DNA of 64,000 nt from Cenarchaeum sp. (lineage in GTDB: Archaea; Thermoproteota; Nitrososphaeria; Nitrososphaerales; Nitrosopumilaceae): assembly GCA_965242695.1 (NCBI GenBank), contig CBDESU010000001.1:768001-832000 (forward strand). The letters run 5' to 3'. Position 1 is the stretch's first letter; each line of letters starts with the position of its first letter. The translations under genes and the position numbers were made by a program. The notes under the pieces were generated by a model. That model did not search any database. It was not told the origin of the DNA and worked only from the letters and a program-made list of their open reading frames with translations. Of the stretch, positions 31,029-60,688 are shown piece by piece.

Positions 31029-31874
31029 ATGGCGCATGGCGGCAGTGCGGGCGAGGAGAATGACGTGCCGGACATGCGGGCCGACGGGGCGGGATCGACG
31101 GCGTGGGGCGTGTGGATTGCGGCGGCCGCGGCAAGGTCGTGGACGGCCGAGGCGCACCACCTTGCGGCATGGGAGGCGTGCCGGAATGGGTGGAGTGAGA
31201 TGGCCACGGCGATCGCGGCCGGCCGGGATTCGGCCAAGATCGGATGCGAGGGCGTGGAAAGGGACGGCCGGATGGACGGGGCGGCGCTTGAGAGCGGGGT
31301 CGAGAAGCTGAGGGCGGCCGTGCTGGCCCAGAAGCGCGCAAGGGCCGAGTTTGCCGAGGCTGCCAAGCGTGCCGTGCTGTCGGCCGACGAGTGGGAGAAG
31401 GCGGCCAGCGCGCATGCGATGGCATGCGACTCGGAGAATGAAAAGGCGCTGCGCGGACAGGCGGACACGGCGCGCGGAATCGGGCGCATGGCCGCCAAGT
31501 GGTCCAAGAGGGCCGGCAAGGGTGCCGGCATGGCCAAGGAGGCGCTGCGCAAGTGGGAGGAGTGCGCGGCCGTGCGGCCGAGAGGGGATGTGTGGGTCGA
31601 CGATCGTGCGTCGTGGGTCGACGAGCAGTCGCGCATACACGCCGATGCCGAGTACACCAGGGCAGAGTGGCTTGGCAGGGCGGAGAAGGCCGCCGAGGCC
31701 GTGCGGACGGCGACAGATCACCTGCGGCAGTATGCAGATCTTGCCGAAAAGATTGCGGCATCGGCCGGCCTGCCGGATGCGGCGCCGCCAGACTCCGAGC
31801 GGGCCGTCAAGGCGTGGAGGAGGGCCATGAGGTCGGCAAGGCGGGCGGGTGCAGGGAACCGTCAGGGCGTATGA
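31029..31874 (+). CDS. Ala/Trp-rich helical protein, family A (A6)
   Basis: VWIAAAAARSWTAEAHHLAAWE; closest paralog 45939..46739. Confidence 0.78.
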   Translation: MAHGGSAGEENDVPDMRADGAGSTAWGVWIAAAAARSWTAEAHHLAAWEACRNGWSEMATAIAAGRDSAKIGCEGVERDGRMDGAALESGVEKLRAAVLAQKRARAEFAEAAKRAVLSADEWEKAASAHAMACDSENEKALRGQADTARGIGRMAAKWSKRAGKGAGMAKEALRKWEECAAVRPRGDVWVDDRASWVDEQSRIHADAEYTRAEWLGRAEKAAEAVRTATDHLRQYADLAEKIAASAGLPDAAPPDSERAVKAWRRAMRSARRAGAGNRQGV

Positions 31875-31986
31875 TGCAGGCGGGCGGATGGCGCGATGGA
31901 TCGATGCTGCGCAGCCTGCAAGCTGCAGGCCGCGCTGTACAGGGCACGATAGAACGGCATAAAGCCGCCGCATTGGGGCTTCTGGC

Positions 31987-32796
31987 ATGGGCGGCAGCGA
32001 AGGATCAGACGCGGCCGCCGTGCTGTGGGACGCGGCCGCGGTCGCAATGGTGTGGGCGGCATCCATACGCGACCATGCGGCATGGATGGAAGTCAGGGGG
32101 GCGTGGGCTACCATGGCAGAGGCTGTCGATGCAATGAGGACCGGAGCCGAGGAGTGCGGGCGGGCAGTAGATGCGCAGGGCATGGTGGACGCGGTCGCAC
32201 TCGGCCGGGCCGGCGAGTCGCTCGGCCGGGCCGGCGCAATGATCGAGCGGGCCGCCGATGCGTTCGGCAGGTCGTCCGAACTGTGCGAGGCCGTTGGAGC
32301 AAGGCAGAAGCGCGCAGGCGAGGCGCACGCGCGGGCGTCGAACATGGAGAACAGCGCGGATGCGTGCAGGATGGCGGCAATGTCGTACGAGCGCGCCGAC
32401 TCGACGGCCAAGATGGTGGCCAAGGTGCGCGCCATTGCGGGAGGGCTGGCGAGGGAGGCCGGGGACATGGCGGCGGAGGCCGCAAGCGAGCATGAGGGGT
32501 CTGGGCGCCGGATGCGGCGCGGCGAACGGAGCGGGCTGGCCGCCGTCCAGGCCGACATGTGGGAGGACACCAAGGACATGCGGGCAAACTCGGCCGAGAT
32601 GCTCCGGCAGTCGTCGGAGGCCGTGAAGGTGGCGGCGCGGATTCGGGCGGTGGCTGGAATGGCGGCCGAGCGGCTGGCGGGAAGGGCGGCCATGGCATGC
32701 AGGGACGGCGCCGCCGACGCGCAAGAGGCCGCTGCGGCATGGAGGGGTGCAGTGGCCGATGCCAACAGGGCGGATGCAGAGGGGGGAGGGAGGTAG
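31987..32796 (+). CDS. Ala/Trp-rich helical protein, family A (A7)
   Basis: LWDAAAVAMVWAASIRDHAAW...ECGRAVDAQG...AVQADMWED. Confidence 0.78.
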   Translation: MGGSEGSDAAAVLWDAAAVAMVWAASIRDHAAWMEVRGAWATMAEAVDAMRTGAEECGRAVDAQGMVDAVALGRAGESLGRAGAMIERAADAFGRSSELCEAVGARQKRAGEAHARASNMENSADACRMAAMSYERADSTAKMVAKVRAIAGGLAREAGDMAAEAASEHEGSGRRMRRGERSGLAAVQADMWEDTKDMRANSAEMLRQSSEAVKVAARIRAVAGMAAERLAGRAAMACRDGAADAQEAAAAWRGAVADANRADAEGGGR

Positions 32797-32893
32797 CGGC
32801 CTCGCCGCGGCCGCGCCCGTGGACTGCACGCGTGCCATGCGCAGCCGGGCATCCGATAGAACGGCATAAAGGCGGCCCGGCGTGCCGCGCGGC

Positions 32894-33739
32894 ATGGGCG
32901 GCGCGAGACCGGATGCGGAGGCGGCCAGCGTCCTGTGGACCGCGGCCGCCGATGCAATGCTATGGACGGCAATGATACGCGAGCACGCATCCTGGACGGA
33001 GCTCAAGGGGGCGTGGGCTGCAAAGTCCGAGGCCGTCGACGCCATGAAGGCCGGCTCTGAGGAGTGCGGCAGTGCCGTCGATGCGCAGGGCGTGGTCGAC
33101 GTCGGCGCGCTCGGCCGGGCCGCCGAGGCCCTGAGGCATGCCGCAGCCACGGCGGGCCGGGCCGCCAAGTCGTTCGACAGGGCGTCCGTTCTCTGCAAGG
33201 CGGCGGGAACAGAACTGAGGCGGGCCGGCGATGCGTACGCGCGGGCGCTCGACAGGGTGCGCGCCGCGGACATGCACGGCATGGCCGCAATGTCGCACGA
33301 CCGCGCCGTCGAGACGGACAGGATGGCGTCAAACGCGCGCGGCATTGCGGCGGGCCTTGCTCACGAGGCCGACGGGATGGCGGCGCTGGCGGCCGGATGG
33401 GCGGGTGCGGGGCAGCGGCGGTGGAGCGGCGACCGCGGCGGACTGGCGGCAGTGCAGGCCGACATGTGGGAGGACGCCAAGGAGATGCGCGCAGGCGCGG
33501 AAGAGATGAAGAGGAGCGCGCAAGAGGCCGAGCGGCTGGCGGTCAAGGTGCGTGGTGTGGCGGCAGGGGCGGCCGAGCGGTCTGCTGCAAGGGCTGCCGC
33601 CGCGGCGCGCGATGGACTTGCCGGACCTGACGCGCCAGAGGCCGCAGAGGCGTGGAGGAAGGCCATGTCCGAGGCCCATGCGGCCGATGACCAGGCCGCC
33701 GGGCGGACGAAGGAGGAGGAGGAGGAGGGGGAAGCGTAG
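32894..33739 (+). CDS. Ala/Trp-rich helical protein, family A (A8)
   Basis: Close paralog of A7; promoter motif 23 nt upstream. Confidence 0.78.
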   Translation: MGGARPDAEAASVLWTAAADAMLWTAMIREHASWTELKGAWAAKSEAVDAMKAGSEECGSAVDAQGVVDVGALGRAAEALRHAAATAGRAAKSFDRASVLCKAAGTELRRAGDAYARALDRVRAADMHGMAAMSHDRAVETDRMASNARGIAAGLAHEADGMAALAAGWAGAGQRRWSGDRGGLAAVQADMWEDAKEMRAGAEEMKRSAQEAERLAVKVRGVAAGAAERSAARAAAAARDGLAGPDAPEAAEAWRKAMSEAHAADDQAAGRTKEEEEEGEA

Positions 33740-34313
33740 CGGATGCGGGCTGCGATGGCGGCGGGGGCGGCGGCGGCGCGGCCGGCCGCCAGCTGCCGAT
33801 AGCAAGGGTGCGGCAGGCCGAAACTATCCGGCGTATCCAGAGCGCCCAGAACGTCGAGCATCCCGGACGCGTCCACGGCGGCCCCTGCCAGATGCGCGAC
33901 GGCGGCCGCCCGGTCGTCGCCCGTGCGGCCGTACAGCGACGCGACGATGCTCGCCCGCTCGTACTCGGCTGGCGTTTTGCCGACGCGCCCGCCGGTCTGC
34001 CCTGCCACCCTGTCGATCCGGTTCGACACGGCCGGATCGGAATTGCCCGCTGCATCAATGCCGAGGGCGGGGCCGGCGCTGCCGCCGACGGCGCCTCAGA
34101 CGATCAGGGCTAGCACGACCGCCACGTTCACGCCTTCACACCGTCGACTACCACGCGTCCATAGGCAGGGCGCATAAAAAAACGGCCGAGGGACTGTGCG
34201 CAATCCGGATCGGCCGCCGATGCCGCCCCGGATTCGACAATCGGGCGCACTGGGGCGATGCGGACGCGCGCCGCACCGAACGGCATAAAGGCGGGCGCGC
34301 GAGGCGCAGCGGC

Positions 34314-35138
34314 GTGGAGAGTAGCGGCCGGAACGAGCACAAGGCGGAGGACGTATGGGCCGCGGCCGGAATGGAGCACGCAAGGGCCGCGGCCATGCAC
34401 CAGTGCGCCACGCTCGATGCCTGCCGCCACTCGTGGGCGGCAAGGGTGGACGGCGGCGGCGCGCTGGGGGATGCGGCCGGCGCAAACGGCAGGATCGTGG
34501 GCGGGGAGGGCAACACGGTCAGCAGGAGCGCGATAGCCGAGACCGGCGCGGCGATGCAGCGGGCCGTGGACGCGCTGGACAGGGCCGCCGTAGAGTTCGG
34601 CCTGGCGGCCAGGCTGTCCGGCATGTCCGCCGACGGGTGGCGCATGGCCGAGAATGCCTTTGCCCGCGCTGGGAACGGCGAGTGGAGGCGGATTGCGCGC
34701 GGGCGATCGAGCGAGGCCCGAAAGATGGCAAAGACGCTCAACACATGGGCGGAAAGGTCGCGCTCGGCGGCCGGCACGCTCGGGCAGTCGGCGCGCGGGT
34801 GGGTGGACGACACGGCCGACTGGGAGGATGGCGCCGAGATGGAAGGCGGCGCAGGCAGGTGGATGGAAAGGCAGGGCCAACTGCAGGCCGTTGCCGACAG
34901 GGAGCGGGGGCATGCGGAGGAGATGGCGCGGGAGACGAACGGGGCCGCGCGGGTGGCCGCCGAAGACCTGGCGCGGATCGCGATCGAGGCCGGGCGTCGC
35001 ACGGCCAGTGTGGAGTGGGCGGATGCGGCTGCGCGCGCCGAGGATAGAGGCCGTGCCGGAACGGGCGCGCTGCGCGAGGCCGCGGACGCGCTCAAGGATG
35101 CGATGGATGCGGCCCGGCAGGCCGAAAGGGGCCGGTAG
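34314..35138 (+). CDS. Ala/Trp-rich helical protein, family A (A9)
   Basis: DVWAAAGMEHARAAA; closest paralog 49251..50060; promoter motif 24 nt upstream. Confidence 0.78.
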   Translation: MESSGRNEHKAEDVWAAAGMEHARAAAMHQCATLDACRHSWAARVDGGGALGDAAGANGRIVGGEGNTVSRSAIAETGAAMQRAVDALDRAAVEFGLAARLSGMSADGWRMAENAFARAGNGEWRRIARGRSSEARKMAKTLNTWAERSRSAAGTLGQSARGWVDDTADWEDGAEMEGGAGRWMERQGQLQAVADRERGHAEEMARETNGAARVAAEDLARIAIEAGRRTASVEWADAAARAEDRGRAGTGALREAADALKDAMDAARQAERGR

Positions 35139-35154
35139 GCGGGGGCGATTTGGC

Positions 35155-35964
35155 GTGGGCAGGGGCGACGGCAGGACGGAGGGCGGCGACGGCGAGGACG
35201 ACGTGGCGGACGTGTGGGGCGCGGCCGGAATGGAGCATGCAAGGGCCGCGTCTGCCCGCCAGTGCGCGGCCATCGATGCGTGCCGGCTTGCATGGGAGGC
35301 GGAGGCCGAGTCGGGCAGCGCGCTGCGCGAGCTGGTGGGCGCAAACGACGAGATTGTCGCCGGCCCAGGCGGGAGCATACGCAGGGGGCCGATCGCGGAT
35401 GCGGCCGCCGCGCTGCGGCGTACCATAGATGCGATCGAGCGGGCCGCCGTAGAGTTCAGCCAGGCCTCAAAGCTGTCCGATGCTGCGGCGGACGGATGGG
35501 AGCGGGCCGCCAAGGCGCTTGGCACGGCGGGGCTGGCCGACAGGGCCGGCGCCGCGCGCTCGCGCGCCGGCGAGGCGCGCGAGATGGCGCGCGGAATGGA
35601 CGGGCATGCGAAGCGGTCCCGCGCGTCGGCCGCAACGTTCGGGCAGGCGGCGGACAAGTGGGTGGCGAACTCGGCCGAATGGGAGGACGGGGACGTGGTG
35701 GCCAGCGGCACCGACGGCTGGAAGGAAAGGCGCGGCGGGGCGCTGGATATAGCGGAAGGCAGGCGGAAAATGGCCGAGGAGATGGAGGAGCGCACGCGGA
35801 ACGCGGCGCGGATGGCCGAGGAAGAGTCTGCGCAGCTGAACGCCAATGCGGAGGTGCTCACGGCCGCGGCAGTTGCCTGGCTGGAGGGGCGGGACGAGCC
35901 GGAGGCGAAGGCGGCGCTCAAGGAGGGGATGGCGGCGGCCGTGCGGGCCGCGCGGGACAGGTAG
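35155..35964 (+). CDS. Ala/Trp-rich helical protein, family A (A10)
   Basis: DVWGAAGMEHARAASARQC; closest paralog 50068..50880; operonic with A9. Confidence 0.75.
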   Translation: MGRGDGRTEGGDGEDDVADVWGAAGMEHARAASARQCAAIDACRLAWEAEAESGSALRELVGANDEIVAGPGGSIRRGPIADAAAALRRTIDAIERAAVEFSQASKLSDAAADGWERAAKALGTAGLADRAGAARSRAGEAREMARGMDGHAKRSRASAATFGQAADKWVANSAEWEDGDVVASGTDGWKERRGGALDIAEGRRKMAEEMEERTRNAARMAEEESAQLNANAEVLTAAAVAWLEGRDEPEAKAALKEGMAAAVRAARDR

Positions 35965-36732
35965 CGTGGCGCCACATGAGGCCTTGGCGGACGGTCCCGT
36001 ATTCGCCGCGCGCCGGCCGGCTGTATCGCCTCGCCGCCTTGATGGGCATGGACGACTTGAACGCATGGCGGCACCGGCGATCGCCGTCTGCCCCGCCATT
36101 GCCTGCATTAGTGCGGTTGCCATTCTCCATGCCCTGGTTCGGGGCAGAGGCCGAGGCGTCTGAATGGCGACCCGTCAAAAAGTTGCCCTGAGGGTACGAG
36201 CGTACGGGCATGGCCGCGGGCGGCCGTATGGCCTCGTTCGCCGCCGTCGTGCCGCCGGTGGATGCCGCATCCCTTGCGGCCCAGGCCGAGGTCGCCGAGT
36301 GCCTGGCTGTCGAGGCAAGCGGCTGGCAGGCGCGTGGGCGCCAGACGTGGGCAGTCGCGCGGGCACGCGCCGCCAGCGTACGTGGTCGGACTGGAGCGCA
36401 TGATCGCGGCCGGGACGGACAGCGCGCATGCGATGGATGCCTGGGCGGATGCCGTCGGGCAGGCGGCGGCCGTCGGGCAGGCGGCGGCCGGCGAGGCGGT
36501 ACTCGGGGACGCGGAGCGCACCATGGCGGATGCAAGGGCGGCCGCACACGAGGCCATTGCATCGATTCAGGCCGGGCAGCGCGTCGTGGCGACCGACCGG
36601 CAGGTCCCGAGCATTGCCACGGGGAGCAGGCTGGCCCCCGTGCTGTCCGGCGAGGGGACGGAGTGCTATTGACGGGCACGGGGCAGCCCGACACGTTTAT
36701 GACTTCTAGGGGGCCGCCTGCGGCGACTGGAT

Positions 36733-36987
36733 ATGGGCATCCTGACCATCTGCGTCTTTGTCGTCGGCGCCGTGATCGGGCATCTTTATGTCACGTCCCA
36801 TATCCTGGGCTATTTTGGGATCATAACAGATGCCGTCGACTGTGGTTCTATAGACGATCCGGCGTGGAGCGACCAGTGCGGCCAAGGAAACGCGATTACG
36901 CGCATGCTCATCCCCATCATCGTTCCGGTGTTGACGGGCGCGATACTTGCATCCGTCGCTCGCATGCTTACCGGGCGGAGACTATGA
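36733..36987 (+). CDS. Small two-TM protein with a Cys-pair loop
   Basis: TM-(DCGSIDDPAWSDQC)-TM; paralog at 51226. Confidence 0.7.
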   Translation: MGILTICVFVVGAVIGHLYVTSHILGYFGIITDAVDCGSIDDPAWSDQCGQGNAITRMLIPIIVPVLTGAILASVARMLTGRRL

Positions 36988-37077
36988 GCAAGGCAAGGCG
37001 ACCGACAGGGGTGGCGCACGGCGCTGTAGCGCGGGCGGACATGGCGGGCGCCGCTCTGATACACTAGGCAAGCTACG

Positions 37078-37800
37078 ATGTGGTTGACACCCGAAGACGC
37101 CGCGCCGAGGCAGTTTGGACTCTACGTTGAGACCGTGCTGGACGACCGGGAAACATGCCACGCGATCAGGGATGTCGACAGACCTGCTCGCCGAGTACGG
37201 CGAGGTCGGCGTCGACCCCGGGTTCAAGCCGGCCAAGTACAGGGTAGCAAGGCCGACTGCTACGGGGCGCAGGGATGAGGCCTACACGGTAAACGTGTAC
37301 CCGTCGGGCAAGGTCGTGTGCCGGGGGGCAAAGTCTGTCGAGAGGGCCCGCACGGACGTGAGGATGGTTCTGCATAGGCTCGGCGTGCCGGAGGGGGGAA
37401 CCACGGCGATGCGGAGGGGGCCGCAGCCGTGCGGTACGTGGTGATGTCGGGATGCATCTTTGGCGAATGACGTGCACAGGGCCATACCAAAGCTCAGGGA
37501 GAGGTACGAGGTGACGCTCGACTCGGAGGTGTTCTCGGGGTATGTGGGGTCGAGGGGTTTGGAGGGGAAGAGGATGGAGGCGTCTCCGTCCAGGTATTCG
37601 CGCCTGATATGGGCGATGCGGATACGGCGTGCGAAGGCGGAAGGATGCCGCTGCTGTGCAGGGGGCCGACCGTGCGGGAGGTGAGCAGGGTCGTCGGCGA
37701 CATGTACAGGGCGATTGTACAGTCCGACCGCAGGCCGGGCGGGGAGGGAGCCGGTGATGCGGCGGACCGCAGGGACGACATGCGGCCGCCGAGCGTATAA
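37078..37800 (+). pseudogene. Highly divergent TATA-binding-protein-like gene with four frameshifts
   Basis: Stitched segments VNVYPSGKVVCRGAKSVERA / VRYVVMSG / TLDSEVFSG / VSVQVF...LLCRGPTVREV follow the two-repeat TBP pattern in order. Confidence 0.65.
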
Positions 37801-37824
37801 GAAGCGCCACCTGAACGGTCCAGT

Positions 37825-38712
37825 ATGGCGGGCGGACCGCAGGCGCGGCCCGACAGTAGCAGCAGGAGGAAGAGCATGGCGGACGACAATGCGGCAATGT
37901 ACGCGTACGCGGCGGCCGTAAAGTCACTGTCGCGCCTGGTCGAGAGGTCGGAAGTAGCCGTGGATGCATGGTCGACACTGGCCAAGTCGACGTTCGACAC
38001 CGGCCTGCGCAAGGCCGCCAACGCCGCATCGGAAAGCAGCGCCGAGCGAAAGGGGGCCTGCGAGACCCTGCTGGAAGGGTGCCGGCTTGACGGCGATGGC
38101 CTGTACGAGGTGTTTCCGGGCATGTGGACCGGCGAGATTGCCGCGGGGGCCGAGGGCATGGCAGCCCTGGCCAGCCGCGCAGCGGCCAGGTGGTCTGCGA
38201 GGGGCGCGCTGCTCTCGGCGTCGACCGAGCCGCCCGTGCTCGCAGAGATGTCGGTCTCGAAGGCCTGGCGGGGGTTTGCCAAAAAGGTGGCGGCCGCGGA
38301 GAGGGCGGCGGAGGGAACCGAACTCGAGGCAAGGCCGGTCGACGAGCTGGCGGCCGCGGCGGCGCGCGGGGCAGAGCGCTTGGCGCGGGCGAGGGGTCCA
38401 TTTAGCGTAGAGGAGGTTGACGCCGCTGCCGGCGTGGACGGCCATGGGGGCGGTACGGGCGGGTTGGCTGATGTGGTTGCGGCGACGGCAGGGAGGCGGG
38501 CGGCCGCTGATGCGAGGGATCGTGCGGCAAGGGAGGCGGCGGAGTCGAAGGCGTTGTTGCGGGACGCTGTAGACGTGTGGATGGAGGCGTCTGCGGAATG
38601 GGCAAGGGCGCGCGACAGGGCCGCGAGAGAGGGCGACAAGGAGGTCGCCAGCATGGCGGATGAGCAGGCCGCATACGCCGGCAAGAATGCCGCTCGCCTG
38701 CGGACTGCCTAG
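37825..38712 (+). CDS. Ala-rich helical protein, family D (D1)
   Basis: AAVKSLSRLV...CRLD...PGMW...AAARW; TATAAG 24 nt upstream. Confidence 0.78.
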   Translation: MAGGPQARPDSSSRRKSMADDNAAMYAYAAAVKSLSRLVERSEVAVDAWSTLAKSTFDTGLRKAANAASESSAERKGACETLLEGCRLDGDGLYEVFPGMWTGEIAAGAEGMAALASRAAARWSARGALLSASTEPPVLAEMSVSKAWRGFAKKVAAAERAAEGTELEARPVDELAAAAARGAERLARARGPFSVEEVDAAAGVDGHGGGTGGLADVVAATAGRRAAADARDRAAREAAESKALLRDAVDVWMEASAEWARARDRAAREGDKEVASMADEQAAYAGKNAARLRTA

Positions 38713-38782
38713 CATCGCTCCGCGTCCAGGCCGGCCGCCATACGCCGCGAGCGATTAAAAATCGCAGTGCGGGCGGCCATGT

Positions 38783-39661
38783 ATGGCTGGAAGGACGTCG
38801 GCGGGGCGGCGCGGGCGCCGGCAGCAGAGGAAGAGGCCGGCACACGACAGGGCGGTGGCTAGGCACAGCGCGGCCGCAAAGTCGCTGATCCGCCTGGTCA
38901 GGATGGCTAGAACCGCCGCATCCATGTGGTCGCACATGGACGAGCTTGCGATTGACGAGGCAGGCCGCGAGGCGGCGGTAAAAATGTCGACGGGCAGCGC
39001 AGACCGCAGGGAGATGGCCGAGGGCCTGCTGAAGGCGTGTTGCCTTGATGTCACGGGCAGCTACGAGATGGTTCCGGGCGTGTGGCGGGACGATATTGCG
39101 GCGGGGGCCGAGGGCATGGCGGCCCTGGCCAACATGGCCGCGGCGAGGTGGTGCGCGAACGGGGGCATGGCGAGCGCGTCGACGGCGAGCGTTGTGTTTG
39201 CCGAGCTGTCGGCATCGGGCGCATGGACGGACTTTGCCGCAAAGGTGGCCGCCGCCGAGCGCGCGGCGCTCGGAACCGCGCTGGATGCAAGGCCGGTGGC
39301 CGAGCGGGCCGCGGCGGCGGCAAGGCACGCCGAACGATCCGTGCCGACGCTGCCGCGGGAGGAGAGCGTGGGCGGCGGGGCGGCAGCGGCTGTTGGCGCA
39401 ATGGGGACGGGGGCGTCGAGCGGGCGGGCCGCAGAGGCTGGCAGGCGGGCCGCGGCCGCCGTGCGGGATCTATCGGTCGGGGCCGTCGAGAGGGCCGCAA
39501 TGGCGCGGCGCGATGCGGCCGGCGTGTGGGCGGAATCTTCCGCACTGTGGTCGAGGGTGCGCAGGGATGCCGCAAGGGAGGGCGATGCGGCCGCTGAGGC
39601 TCTGGCCAGCGTGCAGGCAAGGACGGCTAAAGAGCATGCGACGCGCCTGAGGACTGCCTAG
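38783..39661 (+). CDS. Ala-rich helical protein, family D (D2)
   Basis: AAKSLIRLV...PGVWR...ANMAAARW; TTAAAA 23 nt upstream. Confidence 0.78.
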   Translation: MAGRTSAGRRGRRQQRKRPAHDRAVARHSAAAKSLIRLVRMARTAASMWSHMDELAIDEAGREAAVKMSTGSADRREMAEGLLKACCLDVTGSYEMVPGVWRDDIAAGAEGMAALANMAAARWCANGGMASASTASVVFAELSASGAWTDFAAKVAAAERAALGTALDARPVAERAAAAARHAERSVPTLPREESVGGGAAAAVGAMGTGASSGRAAEAGRRAAAAVRDLSVGAVERAAMARRDAAGVWAESSALWSRVRRDAAREGDAAAEALASVQARTAKEHATRLRTA

Positions 39662-50060: not shown

Positions 50061-50067
50061 GGGGCGC

Positions 50068-51477: not shown

Positions 51478-52283
51478 ATGACGCAGGGAGACCGACAGAG
51501 CCATTCGCACTGCCGTCGGGCTGCATGGCGCGTGCGCGATTGCACGGTGCAGGTGCAGCTGCGCTGCGCCCATCGGACGCATGGCAGTTGGCAGTTCGTG
51601 CCTTGGATGCGGTAGCAGGGGGCAGCATGCCAAGTGCTGGGCGGGCGGCACGGAGCGGGGCCATGAGCCGCCCGCCCTGCTCCCCGCATGATCGCGGCAG
51701 ACTGCAGGGGGGTGGCGGGCATGGCGGCACCGCCCGTCCCCTGCTGCTCGGCGCTGCCATGCCGTCCGTCGTCGATGCGATCGCCTGCACGATCGCCGAC
51801 CGGCGGAACGGTGGGAGCGCGGGAGCCGCCCGGCGGCCCGCAGCGGCTCGACATCGCACCAGAGGCGGCCGTACCCATACGTGCGGTGCAGAGGCCAAGG
51901 CGCATCGCACACGTGGACGGGGGCAGCGCGACCCTGTTCGGCGGCCACGGATGGCCGGCAGCATTAAGCCGCATGTGCCGCGCCGTGCGCTAGGGGGGGG
52001 GGGGGTGAGCGGGCGCCTCGCCCAAGGTGCATCCGCGCGTCGTCTTTATGCCGCTTCTTGCGGCCGAGCCGGGCGATGCGGGCGGCGGCGACAGGGAGTC
52101 GGCAGAGGCGGGAGCGGAGGCGGCGGCAGAATGCGGCACCCGGCACGCAGGTGCGTCCTGCAAGCCTTTCCCGCTGGCACGGCAGGGCGCCCGAGGCCGC
52201 CAGGCGAGTCGCATTCCACTCCGAATGACGTCCTTAACCTACCTTCCCGGCACTTAAATAGGGCATTTCGGCGCCCCCGCCCG

Positions 52284-54083
52284 TTGGCCCGCAAAAGTGG
52301 ATGGCTCGACCGCGTCTCGCTGCGGATGCTCGGCAGCCAGTGGGCCTTTGTGTTCAGCCTGTTCTACGACCTTGAAGAGGCCGGCGCCCGCCTGGACCCG
52401 CTCATCCGAAGGTACCTCCCGATCGCCATCGCAACGTGCCTAGAGCTGTTCTACCGCCAGGTCGGGCAGCGCCTGTTCAATGCCAGCGCCCACATGCACA
52501 CCCCCATCAACATCAGCATCACGCTAGCCCGCATGGACGAGTTCCGGCGCGTCCTGGGCCTCTTTACGCAGGCCGACCTGTTCTGGCACAACCGCAGGGT
52601 CCAGGGCGTCGACGACATAAGGTCGATCCAGGAAGATCTCGGCATGGAGAGCGTGTTCAAGGACGACCCAAGGCTGCTCGACGTGTCGCACCGGATGTTC
52701 GGGGTGCGCAACGACAACGCGCACGGGGCCGGCGCCGGGCGGTACGACGTGCACCTGTTCCTGTGGGCGCTGCGCAGGCACCTTGAAAAGGTCCTCGGGC
52801 AGCTGCCTCCCCTGCGAGCCGTCTTTTGGCTGATCGGCGCGGGCAGGGCCGACCGGCGCGGCGACCGGGATGCCGCCCTCGGGCTCTGCCGCAAGGCGGC
52901 CGAGGAGGCAGACGCCGCGGCCGCTGCCGGCGCCGACCCGTCGGCGTGCCACGTGATCGCCGGCAAGGCGGCAGAGTGGTCGGGCGATCCAAAAGAGGCC
53001 GAATCGCGGTACGAAAAGGCGATTGCGGCGGATTCCGGCAACGCAAACGCGCACGCCGCCATGGGGTGCATGCTAGCGCAGTCCGGCAGCGCGGACGGGG
53101 CGCTAGCCGAGTACGACAGGGCCGTCGAGATCGAGCCGGGCTACGCGAGCGCGCACATGGGCAGGGGACACGTCCTTGCGCGCCTCGGCCGGGAGGGCGA
53201 GGCCCTTGAATGCTACCGGCGGGCGGCCGAGGCGGACCCCATGGATGCCGAGGCGCACATTGCGGCCGGCGCCGTCCACGAGTCGCAGGGCCGGCCGGCC
53301 GAGGCCCTTGAAAGCTACCGGCGGGCGGCCGAGGCGGATCCAACGGAAGCAGAGGCAGAGATTGCCGCCGGCAGGGTGCACATGTCGCAGGGCCGGGCGG
53401 CCGAGGCCCTTGAAAGCTACCGGCGGGCGGCCGAGGCGGACCCGTCGCACAGCAAAACGTACATTGCCGCCGGCCGGGTGCACATGTCGCAGGGCCGGGC
53501 GGCCGAGGCCCTTGAAAGCTACCGGAAGGCGGCAGAGGCGGATCCAAAGGATGCCGAGGCGCACATTGCCGCCGGCCGGGTGCACATGTCGCAGGGCCGG
53601 GCGGCCGAGGCCCTTGAAAGCTACCGGAAGGCGGCCGAGGCGGATCCAAAGGATGCCGAGGCGCACATTGCCGCCGGCGCCGTTCACGAGTCGCAGGGCC
53701 GGGCGGCCGAGGCCCTTGAAAGCTACCGGAAGGCGGCCGAGGCGGATCCAAAGGATGCCGAGGCGCACATTGCCGCCGGCGCCGTTCACGAGTCGCAGGG
53801 CCGGGCGGCCGAGGCCCTTGAAAGCTACCGGAAGGCGGCCGAGGCGGATCCAAAGGATGCCGAGGCGCACATTGCCGCCGGCGCCGTTCACGAGTCGCAG
53901 GGCCGGGCGGCCGAGGCCCTTGAAAGCTACCGGAAGGCGGCGGAGGCACTCGACAAGAGGCAGGGCGGCGCAGCCGAATCCATGCAGGACAGCAGCGCCG
54001 CTCCCGATCCGGCCGGCACAAGGGATGCGGCCGGCCTCGCGCTGGATCGGCTGCGTAAAAGGCAGGGCCGGCTCCGCGCATGA
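52284..54083 (+). CDS. HEPN-like domain + TPR repeat protein
   Basis: IAIATCLELFYR and RNDNAH (RxxxxH), then ~10 TPRs; TTG 25 nt after TTAAAT; stop supplied by the IS end. Confidence 0.75.
   Translation: MARKSGWLDRVSLRMLGSQWAFVFSLFYDLEEAGARLDPLIRRYLPIAIATCLELFYRQVGQRLFNASAHMHTPINISITLARMDEFRRVLGLFTQADLFWHNRRVQGVDDIRSIQEDLGMESVFKDDPRLLDVSHRMFGVRNDNAHGAGAGRYDVHLFLWALRRHLEKVLGQLPPLRAVFWLIGAGRADRRGDRDAALGLCRKAAEEADAAAAAGADPSACHVIAGKAAEWSGDPKEAESRYEKAIAADSGNANAHAAMGCMLAQSGSADGALAEYDRAVEIEPGYASAHMGRGHVLARLGREGEALECYRRAAEADPMDAEAHIAAGAVHESQGRPAEALESYRRAAEADPTEAEAEIAAGRVHMSQGRAAEALESYRRAAEADPSHSKTYIAAGRVHMSQGRAAEALESYRKAAEADPKDAEAHIAAGRVHMSQGRAAEALESYRKAAEADPKDAEAHIAAGAVHESQGRAAEALESYRKAAEADPKDAEAHIAAGAVHESQGRAAEALESYRKAAEADPKDAEAHIAAGAVHESQGRAAEALESYRKAAEALDKRQGGAAESMQDSSAAPDPAGTRDAAGLALDRLRKRQGRLRA
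53199..53945 (+). repeat. 102-bp coding tandem repeat (TPR units), ~7.3 copies
   Basis: GAGGCCCTTGAA at 53199, 53301, 53403, 53505, 53607, 53709, 53811, 53913. Confidence 0.95.
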
Positions 54084-54374: not shown

Positions 54375-56993
54375 TCAAACCCCAGTCGGGGACGGGTCGT
54401 GGACCCCCGTCCCCTGGTACTGCGGCAGGTCTAGCCGAGTCGTCTTGGCGCCATGAACCCGGACTTCCGGGTCATCGGACTTGCAGGGGGGCGGTACGGA
54501 CGGCTTGATCGGCACATGCCAGTTGCCAGGCCTTCGCCTTCGCCTCTGCGGGGTGCCGCATCGCCGCATGCTCGGCGGCGGAGGCTTCGGAGGGTGCCGC
54601 AGCCTGGCGGGTGCAGGACGCGGCGCACGCAGCAATCGCGGCATCGACCGGCGGCTGTCGGCGCGGAGGCGGATCGATGGAGCTGCCTGGGACGGAGCGG
54701 CCCTGCTCCAGTGGGCTTGCGATGCCGTTCGTGGCATTACTCGAGGGGCTTGCGGGGACTGCCGGGCATGCAGGGCGATTGCAACGGCCACGGCCTCTTG
54801 GATCCTCGCATCCGCGGCCGCGGCCTCCACGGCCTTGGCCGCCTCCGCGGCCGCCCTGATGCTCGCATCCGCGGCCGCGGCCTCCACGGCCCTGGCCGCC
54901 TCCGCGGCCGCCCTGATGCTCGCCTCCGCGGCCGCCCTGATGCTCGCATCCGCGGCCGCGGCCTCCACGGCCCTGGCCGCCTCCGCGGCCGCCCTGATGC
55001 TCGCATCCGCGGCCGCGGCCTCCACGGCCCTGGCCGCCTCCGCGGCCGCCCTGATGCTCGCATCCGCGGCCGCGGCCTCCACGGCCCTGGCCGCCTCCGC
55101 GGCCGCCCTGATGCTCGCATCCGCGGCCGCGGCCTCCACGGCCCTGGCCGCCTCCGCGGCCGCCCTGATGCTCGCATCCGCGGCCGCGGCATCCGCGGCC
55201 GCCCCTTTACCCCCGCTGCCGCCGCCCGCCCGGGCCGCCGCGATGCACTCGGGCGGCATCGGGCCGTCGAGGGGGCCCCTCCCAGGCCTTGCCGGCTTCC
55301 CGGCGCCACCCCACCGGTTCGGCGCGACCTGCCCGACCTTGAATATGTCGGCCGGGTCGGCGCCGCGGGCGAGCGCGACGAACGCCTCGTCGAGCGGAAT
55401 GCCCTGCTTGTCGCACGTGAGTATGAACGAGAGTATGACCGAGAACACCCTTGCCCCCTCGACGGTGCGGAGCTGGTAGCGCACGTTGCGCTGCGCGACG
55501 GGCACGCGCCGCACGTCGCTCTCGCCGGGGTTGTTCGTCGGCGGCATGTCCTTGAACATCAGGAACGTGACCAGGTTCTTGGCCGCGTTCTCTATCTCGA
55601 CGCGCGACGGGTGGCCCTCTGGCAGGCGCCCCGCTATGTCCAGCGCCCTCTGGACTATGGAGTCGCGCTCCTCCTCGGGCGCCGTGTCCATCCCGCTTAC
55701 GCGCTCGTACAGGGAGCAGAACTCGTGGTACGCCAACCTGACGGCGGGATCGTCGCTCACGATGGCGGCCTTCTTGAAGTTGTTGATGACATGGCGCCAG
55801 CACCGCTGGATCTCGCCGAGGATGATCTCGTACACCTTGTAGCCGTCGACGACGCCTGCCAGCTGGCGCGCGAACGCAAACTCCTCGTCGAATATGCCCT
55901 TGCCGCGCGAGGGGCGCGCCACGACCATGGCCGCGCACGCCACCGTGAGCAGCCACAGGTAGCCCTGCCTGCCGAACATGCGCATCGTCGTCTCGTCAAA
56001 GTGGCCCCATCCCGTGGATGTGAGCAGCCTTTCAAGGTGCTTCATGAACGGCTCGAGGATGCGCGCGGCCGCCCTGCGCCCGTTCCACAGCGCCGAGGCG
56101 CACGCCGACGTCCCGAGCAGGCTCTCCAGGTAGCGCGACAGCTTGCGGTCCGTCGCGGCAAGCGCGTACAGGACGAGCATCTTTGAGAGCATGACGGGGC
56201 CGAACCAGGTGCCCTTCAGGTCCGGCGCGTCCGGCGCGCGCGACCACTCGTGGCACTTTGAGCACCACAACCTGCAGACGATCAGCTGCCACACGTGGAC
56301 GCGCCCGTCGTCCTCGCCGATCTCGACGAACGTCTTCGACTCGGGCTGCTTGGCCTGGTGGGCGTACGTGGCGCGGCCGCAGTGCAGGCACTCGAAGATG
56401 GGGTAGCGGACGACCTTTTCGGGCTTTAGGCGGTGCGAGGCGCCGGGGTGGCCCATGGGAGGGCCCAGCGCCGCATCGGGCTTGGGGCGCCCGCACGACT
56501 CCGCCTGCTCCCTGTCGAACGCCTTGGCCAGCGGGTTGTACAGGGACGGCATGCCGCGCCGGCTGTTGGGCGTCTCGTAGTACTCGAGCCTCTTCTTGAG
56601 CTTGCGCACCAGCGCCTCCAGCTCGGCCAGCTTGGCAAGGTCCTTGGGGTTGTGGTTGCCCTTTATGGCGTCGATCTGCCACTTGATCGCGTCGAGATCC
56701 CGCGACATGTCGTCTGCCGTGCGCAGGTGCCCGGCGCCGGCCTTCGCGAGCTCGACGGCCATCTCCATGAACCTGCCGGCATCTTCCGTCCTGGCAATGT
56801 CCGCCCGGACCTTGTAGTCCTCAAACTCTGCCTTGAGCCTGTGGACCAGGCGGATCAGACTTGCGATCTCGGCGCGCAGCAGGGCCTTTTCCCTCCCATG
56901 CGCATCCGGCTCGAGCCGTATCCGGGTGACGGCAGGGCAGCAGGCGCACATGACGTCTATGCTCCTCCCGCCGTCCTTGTCGACATGTGGCAC
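54375..56993 (-). CDS. IS66 family transposase with low-complexity C-terminal extension
   Basis: Leucine zipper, CxxC...CxxC, HFDETT, VVDGY, QRCWRH, PTNNPGE; start uncertain. Confidence 0.9.
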   Translation of the reverse strand: MPHVDKDGGRSIDVMCACCPAVTRIRLEPDAHGREKALLRAEIASLIRLVHRLKAEFEDYKVRADIARTEDAGRFMEMAVELAKAGAGHLRTADDMSRDLDAIKWQIDAIKGNHNPKDLAKLAELEALVRKLKKRLEYYETPNSRRGMPSLYNPLAKAFDREQAESCGRPKPDAALGPPMGHPGASHRLKPEKVVRYPIFECLHCGRATYAHQAKQPESKTFVEIGEDDGRVHVWQLIVCRLWCSKCHEWSRAPDAPDLKGTWFGPVMLSKMLVLYALAATDRKLSRYLESLLGTSACASALWNGRRAAARILEPFMKHLERLLTSTGWGHFDETTMRMFGRQGYLWLLTVACAAMVVARPSRGKGIFDEEFAFARQLAGVVDGYKVYEIILGEIQRCWRHVINNFKKAAIVSDDPAVRLAYHEFCSLYERVSGMDTAPEEERDSIVQRALDIAGRLPEGHPSRVEIENAAKNLVTFLMFKDMPPTNNPGESDVRRVPVAQRNVRYQLRTVEGARVFSVILSFILTCDKQGIPLDEAFVALARGADPADIFKVGQVAPNRWGGAGKPARPGRGPLDGPMPPECIAAARAGGGSGGKGAAADAAAADASIRAAAEAARAVEAAAADASIRAAAEAARAVEAAAADASIRAAAEAARAVEAAAADASIRAAAEAARAVEAAAADASIRAAAEASIRAAAEAARAVEAAAADASIRAAAEAAKAVEAAAADARIQEAVAVAIALHARQSPQAPRVMPRTASQAHWSRAAPSQAAPSIRLRADSRRSMPRLLRAPRPAPARLRHPPKPPPPSMRRCGTPQRRRRRPGNWHVPIKPSVPPPCKSDDPEVRVHGAKTTRLDLPQYQGTGVHDPSPTGV
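54806..55200 (-). repeat. 57-bp coding tandem repeat (IRAAAEAARAVEAAAADAS), ~6 copies
   Basis: Directly visible inside the transposase tail. Confidence 0.92.
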
Positions 56994-57398
56994 GCCCGCC
57001 TCTCTCCCCCTCTCGACCCGTCCGGCCGCGCTCCGCTTATCATCTGCTGTGTAAACAATTCTTAACAATCTTGTAAAAAACCTGTGACTTGCCCTCCCGG
57101 GAGGCGCCGCCGAGGGCGGCCGCGCGCGGCCACATGGCCGCCGCCGTGCGCGGCTCCTGCCGGCAGCAGCGGCAGCAGGCTCAAGAACGCCGGCTCGGGG
57201 GCCGCGCGGCCACATGGCCGCCGTCACGCGGCCTCAAGATGCCGGCGGAACGGGCCATGCCCTGGCATGCGCACTAGGCAGAGGGGCGGCGGCACGCCTA
57301 GGGAGGGGCATGCGGATGGGGGGGACCTGAGCTCATGCGGCTCCGCGATGCGGGCGACATGACAAGGTATATTAAGAACACAGGTAGGGGTCGCGGCA

Positions 57399-57596: not shown

Positions 57597-57833
57597 GCCG
57601 CCGCGGGGTGGCCCCTCCCCTGTTTTCCATGGCTGGTGCGCCGTGGGTACAAGGCCGGTTTTTTTTTGCGGGCGACGGGTAGCCCTGCGCCGGACACGCC
57701 CTGCGACCCGGCGGGCCGCCGCCCCGTTGCCAATCGCAGATCGACCACACATCTCCGCGGATGCTCGGCGGCGGGGCGGGTCGTGCGATCTGCATGCGGC
57801 GCGGCCGGCCGACGCCGTTGAAAGCTGCCGGCG

Positions 57834-58290
57834 GGCGCAGGGACGAGAACGGCACCGCAAGCGTGTACCCGTCGGGCAAGGTCGCATGCTTGGGGGCAAA
57901 GTAGGTCGAGATGGCGGGCACGACGTGCACAGGCCGCACCGCCGCTGCGGGAGCGGTACGAGGTGGCGCCAGGCTCGGGGGTGTTCTCGGGGTGCCCTGT
58001 GGGGTCGAGGGGAGTAGTGGGACGGGGGATGGCGGCGGGGACGGCGAGGATGCCGCGTATCCGTCCACGTGTTTGCGCCGGGCGGCGCGGGAACGGGCGG
58101 GGGGGGGGGGGGGCGTGAGCAGGAGGACGCCGCCTCTGTGCAGGGGGCCGACCGTAGACGACATGCGCGCAGTCGTCGGCGACGCGTACAGGATGGCTAT
58201 AGGGGCCAGCGAAGGGCCGGAAACGGGATGCGGCGGCGCCCGAATCGACGATGCGGCAGGCGGCCGACCCCGTGCGCCGGTTCCCGCATA
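57834..58290 (+). pseudogene. Second, more decayed TBP-like copy
   Basis: ASVYPSGKVACLGAK*VE (TAG 57902), LRERYEV..SGVFSG, VSVHVFAP, LCRGPTVDDMRAVVGDAYR; internal deletion relative to copy 1. Confidence 0.65.
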
Positions 58291-58365
58291 ATGCATGGGC
58301 ATACAGGGCCCTGCCAGAGCCGGCAGTCTGCGATCGTATAAAAAACGCCGCAAGCGCGGCCCCGC

Positions 58366-59241
58366 ATGCCTGGCAGGCCGTCGGCGAGGCGGGAGCGCCG
58401 GCAGAACTGGCAGGCGTACGGCAGGGCGGCGGCCAAGTACACGGCGGCCGCAAAGTCGCTGATCCGCCTCGTAGAGTCGGCAAGGGGCGCCGCATCCGCA
58501 TGGTATGGCATGGACGAGCCTGCAATCGGCGGGGCCGCCCGCAAGGCGGCGGCCCAAATGTCGGCAGGCAGCGCGGACCGCAGGGATGCGGCCGAGAATC
58601 TGCTGAAGCTGTGCCGCCTTGACAGGGCGGGCCGCATCGAGATGCTTCCCGGCGTATGGAGGAGCGAGGTTGCGGCGGGGGCCGTGGGCATGGCGGCCCT
58701 GGCCAACATGGCCGCGGCCAGGTGGTCTGCAAGCGGCGCGCTGTCGAGCACGCCGGCGGCGCATGTAGTGCTTGCCGAGATGTCGGCATCGGATGCGTGG
58801 ATGGACTTTGCCGCGAGGGTGTATGCCGCCGAGCGCGCGGCCGTCGGGACGGCGCTGGAGGCGAGGCCGGCGGAGGAGCGCGCGGCCGAGGCGGCAAGGA
58901 ACGCCGAGCGGTCCGTGCCGACGCTGCCGCTGGAGGAATCCGAGGGGGGCGGCGGGGCGGCAGTCGGGGCGACGGGTGCAATGGGGCCGGGGGCGTCCGG
59001 CGGGCGGGCCGCGGAGGAGGGCGAGCGGGCCGCGGAGGAGGTGAGGAGGATTGCGGCGGGGGCGGATGCGAGGACGGCGGCGATGCGGCGCGAGGCGGCG
59101 AGCGTGTGGGCGGAGGCATCCGAGCTGTGGTCAAGGGTGCGCGAGGAGGCCGCGAGGGACGGCTACGCGTCCGCCGTCGCACTGGCCGCCGTGCAGGCAA
59201 AGACGGCAAAGGAGAATGCGGCGCGCCTGGGGGCCGCATAG
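58366..59241 (+). CDS. Ala-rich helical protein, family D (D3, closest to D2)
   Basis: AAKSLIRLV...PGVWR...AERSVPTLP; TATAAA 24 nt upstream. Confidence 0.78.
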   Translation: MPGRPSARRERRQNWQAYGRAAAKYTAAAKSLIRLVESARGAASAWYGMDEPAIGGAARKAAAQMSAGSADRRDAAENLLKLCRLDRAGRIEMLPGVWRSEVAAGAVGMAALANMAAARWSASGALSSTPAAHVVLAEMSASDAWMDFAARVYAAERAAVGTALEARPAEERAAEAARNAERSVPTLPLEESEGGGGAAVGATGAMGPGASGGRAAEEGERAAEEVRRIAAGADARTAAMRREAASVWAEASELWSRVREEAARDGYASAVALAAVQAKTAKENAARLGAA

Positions 59242-59520
59242 CCGGATGCACTGCGCGCTTGGCCGCGGGGCACGGGCGCTGCATCGCCGGCGCGCACGGG
59301 GCGATCGAAAAGGCGCACGGGTGCGATTCCGCGGCGGCCGAACGAGGCGGCGGGCGTGCGGGGCGCTGCCGGCGGGCGCGGACGGCTTGAGGCCATGGTC
59401 CCCGCCGGGGAGGGGGGGGGGCGCCGCTGGCGACGGCGCGCATGGTGCAGCATGGCGGCCCCGATGTGCACGCGGCGCGCCACGGCCAATCTTATAGCAC
59501 GGCGCCCGCGGCGCGGCGCA

Positions 59521-60246
59521 ATGGCGGTGTCCTCGGCATGCGCGCTGTGCGGCCGCGCGTTCGAGCATCGCGGCCATTCTAGACACGCCTTCTGCAAGCA
59601 CTGTAGGGCCAAGGCCGACAGAAAGGTCGGCAGGGCGCGGATCGTCAAGTGCGGGGAGTGCGGCAGGCCGTTCTCTGCGACGGCCAGCAGGGCCCGCTAC
59701 TGCTCCGATCCGTGCCGCTCGGAGGCCCTGCGCAGGTACAACCGAGAGTACATGCGGCGGTACGTGGCAGACCCCGAGAAGCGCGCCATCTGCGCGGCGC
59801 GCACAAGGGCATCCGCGGCCGCCCGCAGGGCAAGGGCCAGGGAGGACAAGGAGGGGCGGGGGCAACAGGGGCCCCGGCGGCAGGCCGGCCCAGGCGCAGC
59901 GAGCCGGCCGCGCGCCGCGCCGTCCGGCACGGGCGTATGCGCGCTGTGCGGCCGCGCGTTCGCGCAGTACGGCCGTACGGCCCATTCCTACTGCAAGCGA
60001 TGCACGACAAAGGCCGACAGGGAGATCGCCAGGGTGCTGCGCGTGGACTGCAGGGAGTGCGGCAAGGAGTTCTCGACGACCAATCGAATCGTCCGCTACT
60101 GCTCGGATGCATGCCGCGCAGCCGGCAAGGCTCGCGGCAAGCGCGAGAGCAACCGCGAGCGCATGGCCGACCCCGAGAAGCGCGACCTAGCGGCGGCGCG
60201 CATCAGGGCGGGAAAGGCCGCCCGCGGCGGCGGCGCACGCGGGTGA
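59521..60246 (+). CDS. Four-zinc-finger basic protein (Z6)
   Basis: Same architecture; promoter motif 24 nt upstream. Confidence 0.8.
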   Translation: MAVSSACALCGRAFEHRGHSRHAFCKHCRAKADRKVGRARIVKCGECGRPFSATASRARYCSDPCRSEALRRYNREYMRRYVADPEKRAICAARTRASAAARRARAREDKEGRGQQGPRRQAGPGAASRPRAAPSGTGVCALCGRAFAQYGRTAHSYCKRCTTKADREIARVLRVDCRECGKEFSTTNRIVRYCSDACRAAGKARGKRESNRERMADPEKRDLAAARIRAGKAARGGGARG

Positions 60247-60341
60247 TGCGCGCGCCGGCGCGCCTCGGGACGCCTCTTCCGCAAGAGCCCGCCTCGGGTC
60301 CGCACCAGCCAATCTTGTAGGCGAATTAAATGCGCGGCGCA

Positions 60342-60688
60342 ACGGAGAGGGGGATGGGCCTGCCGCCTGCATGCTGTGCGGCAGCGCGTTCGCGCAGTAC
60401 GGCCGCATGCCTAACGCCGGCAGGTGCAGATCTTGTGGGGCCGGTAGGCGCCTCGGCCTGTCCGACGCGCACTTTCCAATGCCCATGGTGGCGAGGGCAC
60501 CCGTCCGCGGGCCTGCAGGGGTGCAGGGATCACGGGGCGAGCGGGGCCTGCGCCCTCTCCTCCGCCACATGCGCCCGCCGCGGGTCGCCTCGGCCTGCCG
60601 ACCTGTCCCCCACAGGCGCAGTCCGGCGGGGAGGCGGGATGAACCACTTTTGGGATGCCGCAAGGCGCCGCCGCCGCCAGCACATTAA
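60342..60688 (+). pseudogene. Truncated zinc-finger family copy (Z7)
   Basis: Promoter TTATAG changed to TTGTAG, ATG to ACG; only CMLCGSAFAQYGR...CRSC remains. Confidence 0.6.

Follow-up and report, generated by a model that had tools for sequence, protein, structure and literature searches.

A duplicated island of multigene families in a Cenarchaeum genome, probably a lineage-specific expansion rather than a TBP-driven regulon

Here we have analysed a 64,000-nt stretch of the genome of Cenarchaeum sp. (the window; C1:768001-832000, C1 being one of the two contigs of the assembly that we call G000, GCA_965242695.1), in which three protein families, named A, D and Z here, stand with a small membrane protein (TM) and with sequences derived from the TATA-binding protein (TBP) in two blocks of the same gene order. 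This region is in our judgement likely to be a lineage-specific multigene-family island of a sponge-symbiotic ammonia-oxidising archaeon, and not a regulon driven by an alternative TBP; the best reading of its history is growth by tandem and segmental duplication, with part of the product now decaying. It is possible that A and Z are functionally tied, and this tie remains the part worth testing.

The duplicated blocks and their broken TBP sequences

The duplicated cassette is real: self-BLASTN recovers a collinear, diverged segmental duplication across 31-61 kb of the window at 65-80% DNA identity (Table 1), and in an all-vs-all BLASTP of the window's open frames the closest paralogs pair across the blocks, with amino-acid identities of 49% for A6/A11, 74% for A9/A12, 69% for A10/A13 and 64% for D2/D3. 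This bears out the original prediction, made from the letters of the window, that one gene order occurs twice with its closest paralogs paired between the copies. Within block 1, D1 and D2 are 53% identical over 141 aa, and A7 and A8 are 50% identical. A short-read contig from another study (X5) is identical across 36611-38141, including the TBP-like locus, and two diverged short-read contigs (X6 and X7) bridge 37246/37289 to ~40400, taking in what is left of the TBP-like gene together with D1, D2 and the beginning of Z1; the arrangement and its breaks are thus not artefacts of the G000 assembly. The many short-sided joints seen in short-read contigs were attributed to paralog repeats and disregarded as artefacts.

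Coding frames were picked by codon-position GC, 243 open reading frames (ORFs) of at least 60 aa overlapping 29-64 kb of the window. The genes of the original prediction are plus-strand ORFs whose third-position GC (GC3, 0.78-0.91) exceeds that at second positions (GC2). Purifying selection on the paralogs is weak but present, as their ratio of nonsynonymous to synonymous divergence (dN/dS) is 0.49-0.74, near the 0.48 of a neighbouring TPR duplicate used as control (the pair within 24633-28912).

The TBP-like sequences were proposed to be working genes; their origin holds up, their function does not. The block 1 copy scores 26.1 bits against a cut-off of 22.9 for Pfam PF00352 in a whole-genome search (profile positions 39-81 of 85, window 37253-37378) and is truly TBP-derived, and its alignment covers most of an intact, divergent TBP paralog (190 aa) of a 2.0-Mb congener, G001; this paralog is the best match to the window copies (E 3.7e-7) and the live counterpart of both. 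The block 2 copy falls under the cut-off, with 16.6 bits at 57842-57916, one TAG lying inside the match, and 13.5 bits in a separate Pfam search. Unlike archaeal TBP paralogs, the window copies carry frame changes and in-frame stops, and the genome has its canonical TBP genes at other places. Block 1 falls into pieces at ~37078-37170 and 37172-37441, ended by a TGA at 37442, with a frame change near 37565 into 37570-37800; in a tblastn comparison with the G001 paralog, the first strand (LYVETV...) shares its frame with the ORF at 37078, the frame that opens at 37172 holds the greater part of both TBP repeats, with the TGA interrupting it, and the end (LLCRGPTV...YRAI) lies in a third frame. 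Block 2 has a stop within the GAK(S) motif, further frame changes and the same second-repeat frame change as block 1, so at least that lesion is older than the duplication. Neither copy retains an intact two-repeat ORF of ~180-190 aa. Judged from their sequences, both are decayed pseudogenes of a divergent TBP paralog, and as such they cannot supply an alternative TBP as regulator here. Outside the window, G000 encodes two canonical two-repeat TBP genes and four transcription factor B (TFB) genes.

Three families with three promoter boxes

Each intact A, D or Z gene, or in the case of A9-A10 and A12-A13 each gene pair, is preceded by an extended TATA-type box specific to its family, ~30 nt ahead of the start codon. 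The three types are distinct: gAtCGAACGGCATAAAGGCGgC for A; CCcGCCAGcCTTATAgC for Z, with a further conserved GCGCGGCGCg directly before the ATG; and a GCG(T/A)(A/T)TAAAAA-like box for D. The 16-mer form of the A-box, GAACGGCATAAAGGCG, occurs 31 times in the genome at up to two mismatches, 21 of these before A genes, as compared with four hits for a reversed-motif control; 23 of the 32 A loci have an A-box, the start following 21-24 nt behind it. The Z-box search pattern matched 13 of 16 Z loci, two of these 13 matches looking false. No A-box was found before a Z or D gene, nor a Z-box before an A or D gene. A10 and A13 have no box of their own and start 16 and 7 nt behind A9 and A12; with a single A-box ahead of each pair, A9-A10 and A12-A13 are probably co-transcribed, as one transcript each.

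Across the genome, an AT-rich hexamer lies 26-37 nt ahead of the start in 983 of the 1362 confident ORFs, most often at 29-31 nt, and its flanks are unconserved. The distance of the A and Z boxes from their starts is hence typical of this genome and, as far as sequence can tell, points to the normal TATA position of leaderless transcripts, with family-specific flanks; each family would then be read from its own promoter class. Furthermore, A and Z boxes both recur before the copies of these families in a second Cenarchaeum species (assembly G004), whose proteins are 30-60% identical; that the boxes are kept at such protein identity argues for selection on family-wide regulation. The original proposal of a single regulon spanning A, D and Z fares less well, since three distinct boxes and no common cis element argue against it.

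Two further sequences came up in these searches. The commonest 8-mer at the TATA position genome-wide, CATAAATC, precedes 20 of the 983 ORFs and may mark a further class of promoter or another gene family. An identical stretch around CGGCATAAAG is present in five copies (C1:278078, 396080, 1626795 and 1742628(-), and C2:505429), flanked by gccgcagatccg... and ...accgccatgtcc; this is probably a repeat with no relation to family A.

Sequence and predicted structure of the families

Family A comprises proteins of ~265-285 aa, and a family profile hidden Markov model (HMM) finds 32 loci in G000, all on C1, of which 28 are near full length in one frame and twelve lie in the window. Four full copies sit outside the range of the original prediction (14884-17668 and 29347-30183). 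The proteins contain 24-30% Ala, have an isoelectric point (pI) of 5.0-7.7 and are without a hydrophobic segment. The AlphaFold model of A9 (pLDDT 91.6, pTM 0.88; per-residue and overall fold confidence, respectively) is a five-helix bundle with helices at residues 4-59, 71-118, 122-166, 179-243 and 251-273. With helices of 45-65 residues, this model resembles the long antiparallel helical bundles of ClyA-type pore formers, ESCRT-III/Vipp1 and Bro1; in contrast to ClyA/Vipp1-type bundles, A has no hydrophobic segment, and the fold matches are insignificant. Indeed, Foldseek against PDB and BFVD gave no match for A at E <= 0.001, the weak matches, ClyA and Vipp1 among them, having a best E of 0.26 and TM-scores (template modelling) of at most 0.40. 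An ESCRT-III/Snf7 (PF03357) identity for A, suggested by the weak Vipp1 and Bro1 fold matches, was rejected: Pfam gave no match, and hhalign against the genome's CdvB-like protein returned a probability of 0.03. A profile search of 1.84 billion representatives collected 115 clusters of A; in the ESM Atlas, A8 had no usable match.

Family D (~292 aa) has three loci in G000, all within the window, and 47 invariant columns across 14 sequences. Its 17 homologs all come from ENA or Logan assemblies, and alignment scans of JGI metagenome contigs and of genome contigs found no match. The D model is all-helical (pLDDT 77), with no Foldseek match in PDB at E <= 0.001 and no usable ESM Atlas match for D2. 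The profiles of A and D are unrelated by hhalign (probability 0.1). We infer that A and D would be soluble, non-enzymatic helical bundles that act through protein contacts.

Family Z (~232 aa) counts 18 loci in G000, 13 of them near full length in one frame, and 113 homologs, again all from ENA or Logan assemblies; an alignment scan of JGI metagenome contigs gave no match. Across 24 sequences, 16 Cys are invariant and make up four CxxC...CxxC (Cys4) sites in two repeats, each repeat being followed by a basic helix. In view of these sites and helices, a pI of ~11 and an Arg content of 19%, Z proteins probably bind nucleic acid. They had been predicted to be multi-zinc-finger DNA binders, and the invariant Cys do amount to four zinc sites and a plausible DNA binder, but not one of C2H2 type, since all ligands are Cys. 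Two Pfam matches fall just under their respective cut-offs, Ecl1 at 25.0 bits and NinG at 21.9 against 25.4, and PHROG 1271, 'HNH endonuclease', is matched with E 4.3e-17 over profile positions 177-250 of 361 only. The second zinc module of each Z repeat (CxxCGxxFS...RYCSxxCR) is like the Cys4 ribbons of phage HNH endonucleases, NinG and Ecl1 (PHROG 1271, PF05766, PF12855), but the two-repeat, four-site architecture of Z with basic helices is undescribed in the libraries searched. An HNH nuclease was rejected because neither His nor Asn appears among the invariant or near-invariant columns of the 24 sequences, so that the catalytic set is missing. A profile search of PDB with Z matched only repetitive, short C2H2 CxxCGkxF knuckles. 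The FCS/TRASH-type pattern is C-x2-C ... (F/Y)CS-x2-C.

The family as listed in the original prediction (Z1-Z7) is real, although two members have decayed: Z4 is without a Z-box and without a start codon ahead of its first zinc module, standing in frame with Z3 behind one stop, and Z7 is an out-of-frame remnant. Between Z1 and Z2 lies an 84-aa ORF (40890-41144) of coding type (GC3 0.80) with no Pfam or PHROGs match.

The impression that no described system has this composition agrees with the databases. Pfam, NCBIfam, PHROGs and PADLOC name neither A nor D, PADLOC 2.0 returned no family for A9, D2 or Z2, and NCBIfam likewise names none of A, D and Z. The small membrane protein, found at four places in the genome by tblastn, has no Pfam, NCBIfam or PHROG family, and Rfam finds nothing in the window.

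Occurrence and linkage across genomes

The genome of G000 is 3.89 Mb in two contigs at 67-68% GC (70% in the window). It carries markers of an ammonia-oxidising archaeon, with amoA at 393.7 bits and several of its 45 tRNA genes having intron-type lengths, and sponge metagenome runs from four studies contain 48-96% of the sampled words from window 34000-43999. Most genomes of the host family measure 1.4-1.8 Mb, and the host genus has members of 1.8, 2.0, 3.2 and 3.7 Mb. The original prediction had looked to Nitrososphaerota for relatives, rightly so despite the 70% GC of the window. These features agree with the accessible text on sponge-associated ammonia-oxidising archaea, in which seven of eleven sponge-associated Thaumarchaeota have a GC content of 47-67% (PMC7848895) and in which GC values reaching 67%, numerous genes lacking orthologues and adaptation by way of 'gene family expansion' are described (PMC6790972; PMC7848895). 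That same text, in contrast, leaves A-, D- and Z-like families and the promoter boxes unmentioned, though the supplements may list them unnamed; a literature search likewise found no description of A, D or Z in the accessible texts.

Among 41 relatives, A and Z occur in two, G000 and G004, three of the four congeners being without both; D is absent from all 400 other genomes of the host family (one of 401 with G000 included). Linkage of the families, which the original prediction took to form a self-contained cassette, is partial. In G000, the other family is found within 10 kb of 11 of the 32 A loci and of nine of the 18 Z loci; the remaining 21 A loci, a nine-copy array at C1:1037-1049 kb among them, are more than 10 kb from any Z, and Z arrays without A stand at 872-881 kb. 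The G004 A/Z regions that we examined contain no D, TBP-like or TM gene. They do hold, like the window, a giant Big_5 protein, TPR proteins and a transposase. The synteny expected in relatives is thus recovered in one part, as A followed by Z recurs in the second species, and fails in another, as D and the TBP-like gene do not accompany it. The gene ELP3 flanks the G000 island, and its 84%-identical G004 counterpart is 7 kb from a Z array in a mirror-image arrangement; with this flank in both species, the island seems to have been inherited from a common ancestor and later reshuffled.

Other genes and repeats of the island

Block 2 is interrupted by the TPR gene and by an IS66-family element, the latter as originally predicted and at a score well over its cut-off (Table 1); the TM copy at 51226 was likewise rightly called a pseudogene, with an in-frame stop. 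Two other labels for the inserted sequences did not stand, the DUF3800 match being under the Pfam cut-off (17.4 against 21 bits) and residues 1-470 of the TPR protein matching no family, with no HEPN domain among them. Within the TPR gene, 53187-53947 is a tandem repeat with a 102-nt period, i.e. 34 aa, at 87-92% identity, and the ORF-poor stretch 46740-49250, likewise gained by block 2, includes an internal 246-nt repeat (47068-47311 against 48937-49182, 89%). In block 1, the GNAT-bearing repeat between Z4 and Z5, unremarked in the original prediction, is 94% identical over 818 nt (43743-44560) to C2:1625119-1624305; with 14 tblastn places in the genome, including C2:1250657-1251023, it looks mobile or recently copied.

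Upstream of the blocks, an IrrE/M78 peptidase-domain protein (13678-14790, minus strand) stands directly before the first A array and was the only one of ten proteins sent to PADLOC to match (capP at E 5e-18, and RmrA). Downstream of A1-A3 lies a first giant protein of 1862 aa with Big_5 and beta-helix matches in Pfam (18646-24234, plus strand), and a small ORF ahead of it (18010-18213) repeats its last 43 residues (24028-24238) at 65% aa and 79% nt identity. The two giant Big_5 proteins have C-terminal ends in common. We rejected a polymorphic-toxin/immunity reading of the giants and A arrays, as these shared ends leave no variable tips and the A genes lie upstream. A tandem duplication at 24633-28912 (89% nt over 2.1 kb) has doubled a gene pair that encodes a TPR protein of 587 aa and a protein of 223 aa whose PIN match is sub-threshold, and internal tandem repeats of ~255-nt period and 87-92% identity occupy 11728-12587. 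DDE_3 and rve-type transposases stand beside A/Z arrays in the G000 and G004 islands (locus L004, 8514-9653, minus strand; locus L002, 1889-3208, plus strand).

Table 1. Features of the window and related loci. Positions are those of the window unless a contig or locus is named.
Feature	Position	Strand	Evidence or remark
A1, A2, A3	14884-15726, 15821-16822, 16847-17668	+	A-HMM E 4e-28 to 9e-38; A-box 21-22 nt before each start
A4	29347-30183	+	A-HMM E 3e-42; A-box present
Weak C-terminal A remnant	~30603-30941	+	E 2.4e-7, query positions 153-270
A6, A7, A8 (block 1)	31029-31874, 31987-32796, 32894-33739	+	One A-box promoter each
A9, A10	34314-35138, 35155-35964	+	Single A-box before A9; 16-nt gap
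Small membrane protein TM, 84 aa	36733-36987	+	Two hydrophobic segments, maximum hydropathy 2.33
TBP-like pseudogene, block 1	37078-37800	+	Pfam TBP match 37253-37378; three frames
D1, D2	37825-38712, 38783-39661	+	TATAA/TTAAAAA box ~25-30 nt upstream of each
Z1, Z2, Z3, Z4	40065-40760, 41437-42135, 42230-42931, 42932-43726	+	Family Z
GNAT-bearing inserted repeat between Z4 and Z5	43743-44700	-	GNAT gene 44084-44656, Pfam match
Z5	44916-45614	+	True start 22 nt after Z-box
A11 (block 2)	45939-46739	+	A6 partner
Stretch without convincing ORF, 2.5 kb	46740-49250		DUF3800 piece 47381-47890; internal repeat
A12, A13	49251-50060, 50068-50880	+	A9/A10 partners; one A-box; 7-nt gap
TM pseudogene	51226-51480	+	In-frame stop
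TPR protein, 869 aa	51474-54083	+	Interrupts block 2
IS66-family transposase ORF	54375-57227	-	DDE_Tnp_IS66 PF03050, 65 bits against cut-off 23.1, residues 341-593
TBP-like pseudogene, block 2	57683-58291	+	Stop within GAK(S) motif and frame changes
D3	58366-59241	+	D2 partner
Z6	59521-60246	+	Intact
Z7 remnant	60342-60692	+	Z-box retained, ATG now ACG, frame lost
Second giant Big_5-type protein, 2705 aa	61027-64000, on to C1:837144	+	41% identical over 399 aa to first giant
A6/A11 alignment	31110-31738 vs 45975-46603		71% nt, self-BLASTN
A9+A10 / A12+A13 alignment	34271-36247 vs 49209-51169		80% nt over 2 kb, self-BLASTN
TBP-like region alignment	37469-37710 vs 57922-58192		65% nt, self-BLASTN
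D2/D3 alignment	38747-39667 vs 58330-59247		76% nt, self-BLASTN
Z1/Z6 alignment	40130-40792 vs 59586-60282		70% nt, self-BLASTN
A-then-Z, places 1 and 2	Block 1 and block 2 of the window
A-then-Z, place 3	C1:843.5-846.8 kb		A, A, Z, Z beyond the window; both A genes split
A-then-Z, place 4	G004 C2:2295-2339 kb		11 full A and two fragments around five Z
A-then-Z, place 5	G004 C2:2414295-2416199 (L008 8244-9083 and 9498-10223)		Isolated pair
Intact TBP paralog of G001, 190 aa	G001:C1:642033-642605 (L007 6033-6605)		Between small membrane-protein ORFs

Discussion

We propose that an ancestral block of A genes, TM, the TBP paralog, D and Z would have been duplicated as a segment, with later tandem duplication in block 1 giving A7/A8, D1/D2 and Z1-Z5. 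Insertions may then have brought the GNAT repeat into block 1 and the TPR gene and IS66 element into block 2, while several members, namely both TBP-like copies, one TM copy, Z4 and Z7, would have decayed. Such arrays would grow and shrink by recombination between paralogs under weak purifying selection.

Several observations sit uneasily with this picture. Three places in G000 and two in G004 have an A gene with Z next on the same strand, a recurrence beyond what a purely neutral account needs, which may reflect a functional tie. The boxes are far better conserved than the coding sequence, which stands at 30-50% amino-acid identity, and this argues for selection on a regulation that duplication and decay leave unspecified. 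D and Z matches were found on metagenome contigs of equal lengths (21470, 7037, 31483 and 171588 nt), which hints that D and Z are linked in other organisms as well. Finally, no fold match at E <= 0.001, in PDB or BFVD for A and in PDB for D, points to a role for either family.

These points bear most directly on the alternative that A and Z form a functional two-gene module, Z, for example, binding the boxes and so setting which A copies are expressed, or acting with A on nucleic acid, with D as an optional third component, to which we give a low probability. The five adjacencies in two species, among them the isolated G004 pair, would be explained by such a module, as would the pairing of an acidic to neutral A with a strongly basic Z and the conservation of the extended boxes across species. 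However, the A and Z loci lying more than 10 kb from the other family amount to 21 of 32 and nine of 18, two of the three adjacencies in G000 go back to a single duplication, and the third has both its A genes split. Complex prediction for an adjacent G004 A-Z pair scored 0.00, which is no evidence either way. A narrower form of the idea, which we regard as rather improbable, is that Z proteins recognise the family-specific TFB-recognition element (BRE)/TATA boxes and so choose which of the 32-copy A family is transcribed, in a module confined to sponge symbionts and with D as an accessory.

It is similarly improbable, in our view, that the families came with integrated mobile elements or viruses, as their cargo or remnants, and spread through transposition or by integrating repeatedly. 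Such an origin would fit Z, whose zinc module matches an HNH-endonuclease PHROG of phages (E 4e-17) and whose match to NinG is weak, and the islands do hold IS66, rve and DDE_3 transposases, the mobile GNAT repeat, the IrrE/M78 peptidase and a NotI-like nuclease, the families moreover being missing from three of four congeners. Against this, capsid, terminase and integrase genes are missing from the window, as is a tRNA target, with only the IS66 transposase present; A, D, TM and the TBP-like ORF have no PHROG (attachment repeats were not exhaustively searched), and the tandem arrays carry host-type leaderless promoters. Furthermore, a GC content of ~0.69-0.74 against 0.67-0.68 for the genome is not a foreign composition, and the island occupies the same place beside ELP3 in two species.

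The self-contained regulon of the original prediction, with an alternative TBP and zinc-finger DNA binders in control of the helical family, now appears very unlikely. It drew on the TBP-derived sequence that lies between A and D/Z in both blocks, on Z as a plausible DNA binder and on the lack of any known matching system. Yet both TBP-like copies are broken, with one frame change in common; next to the G004 arrays, neither a TBP-like nor a D or TM gene turned up; A and Z arrays are in many cases separate from each other; each of the three families has a different promoter box; and two canonical TBP genes and four TFB genes are present elsewhere in the genome. As to the reading that the ORFs are chance open frames in GC-rich DNA, we give it almost no credence: long ORFs do occur in many frames at 70% GC (the 243 counted above) and dN/dS is fairly high, but the frame-specific GC3 signal, ORF lengths kept over a synonymous divergence (dS) of 0.3-0.9, the conserved Cys pattern of Z, the confidently predicted fold of A, the constant spacing between promoter box and start, and homologs in other assemblies all speak for genes.

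The region carries a caution for annotation, namely that a domain match over a curated cut-off, here to TBP, can sit in a dead gene. The sharp boxes conserved in two species offer natural test cases for promoter specificity in archaea with several TBP and TFB genes, and if Z proteins did choose among A copies, this would be a variably expressed multigene family in an archaeon. Genomes of the genus range over 1.8-2.0 Mb and 3.2-3.9 Mb, and islands such as this reveal the content of the additional DNA, namely orphan families that tandem and segmental duplication have multiplied, interspersed with transposases and with genes in decay.

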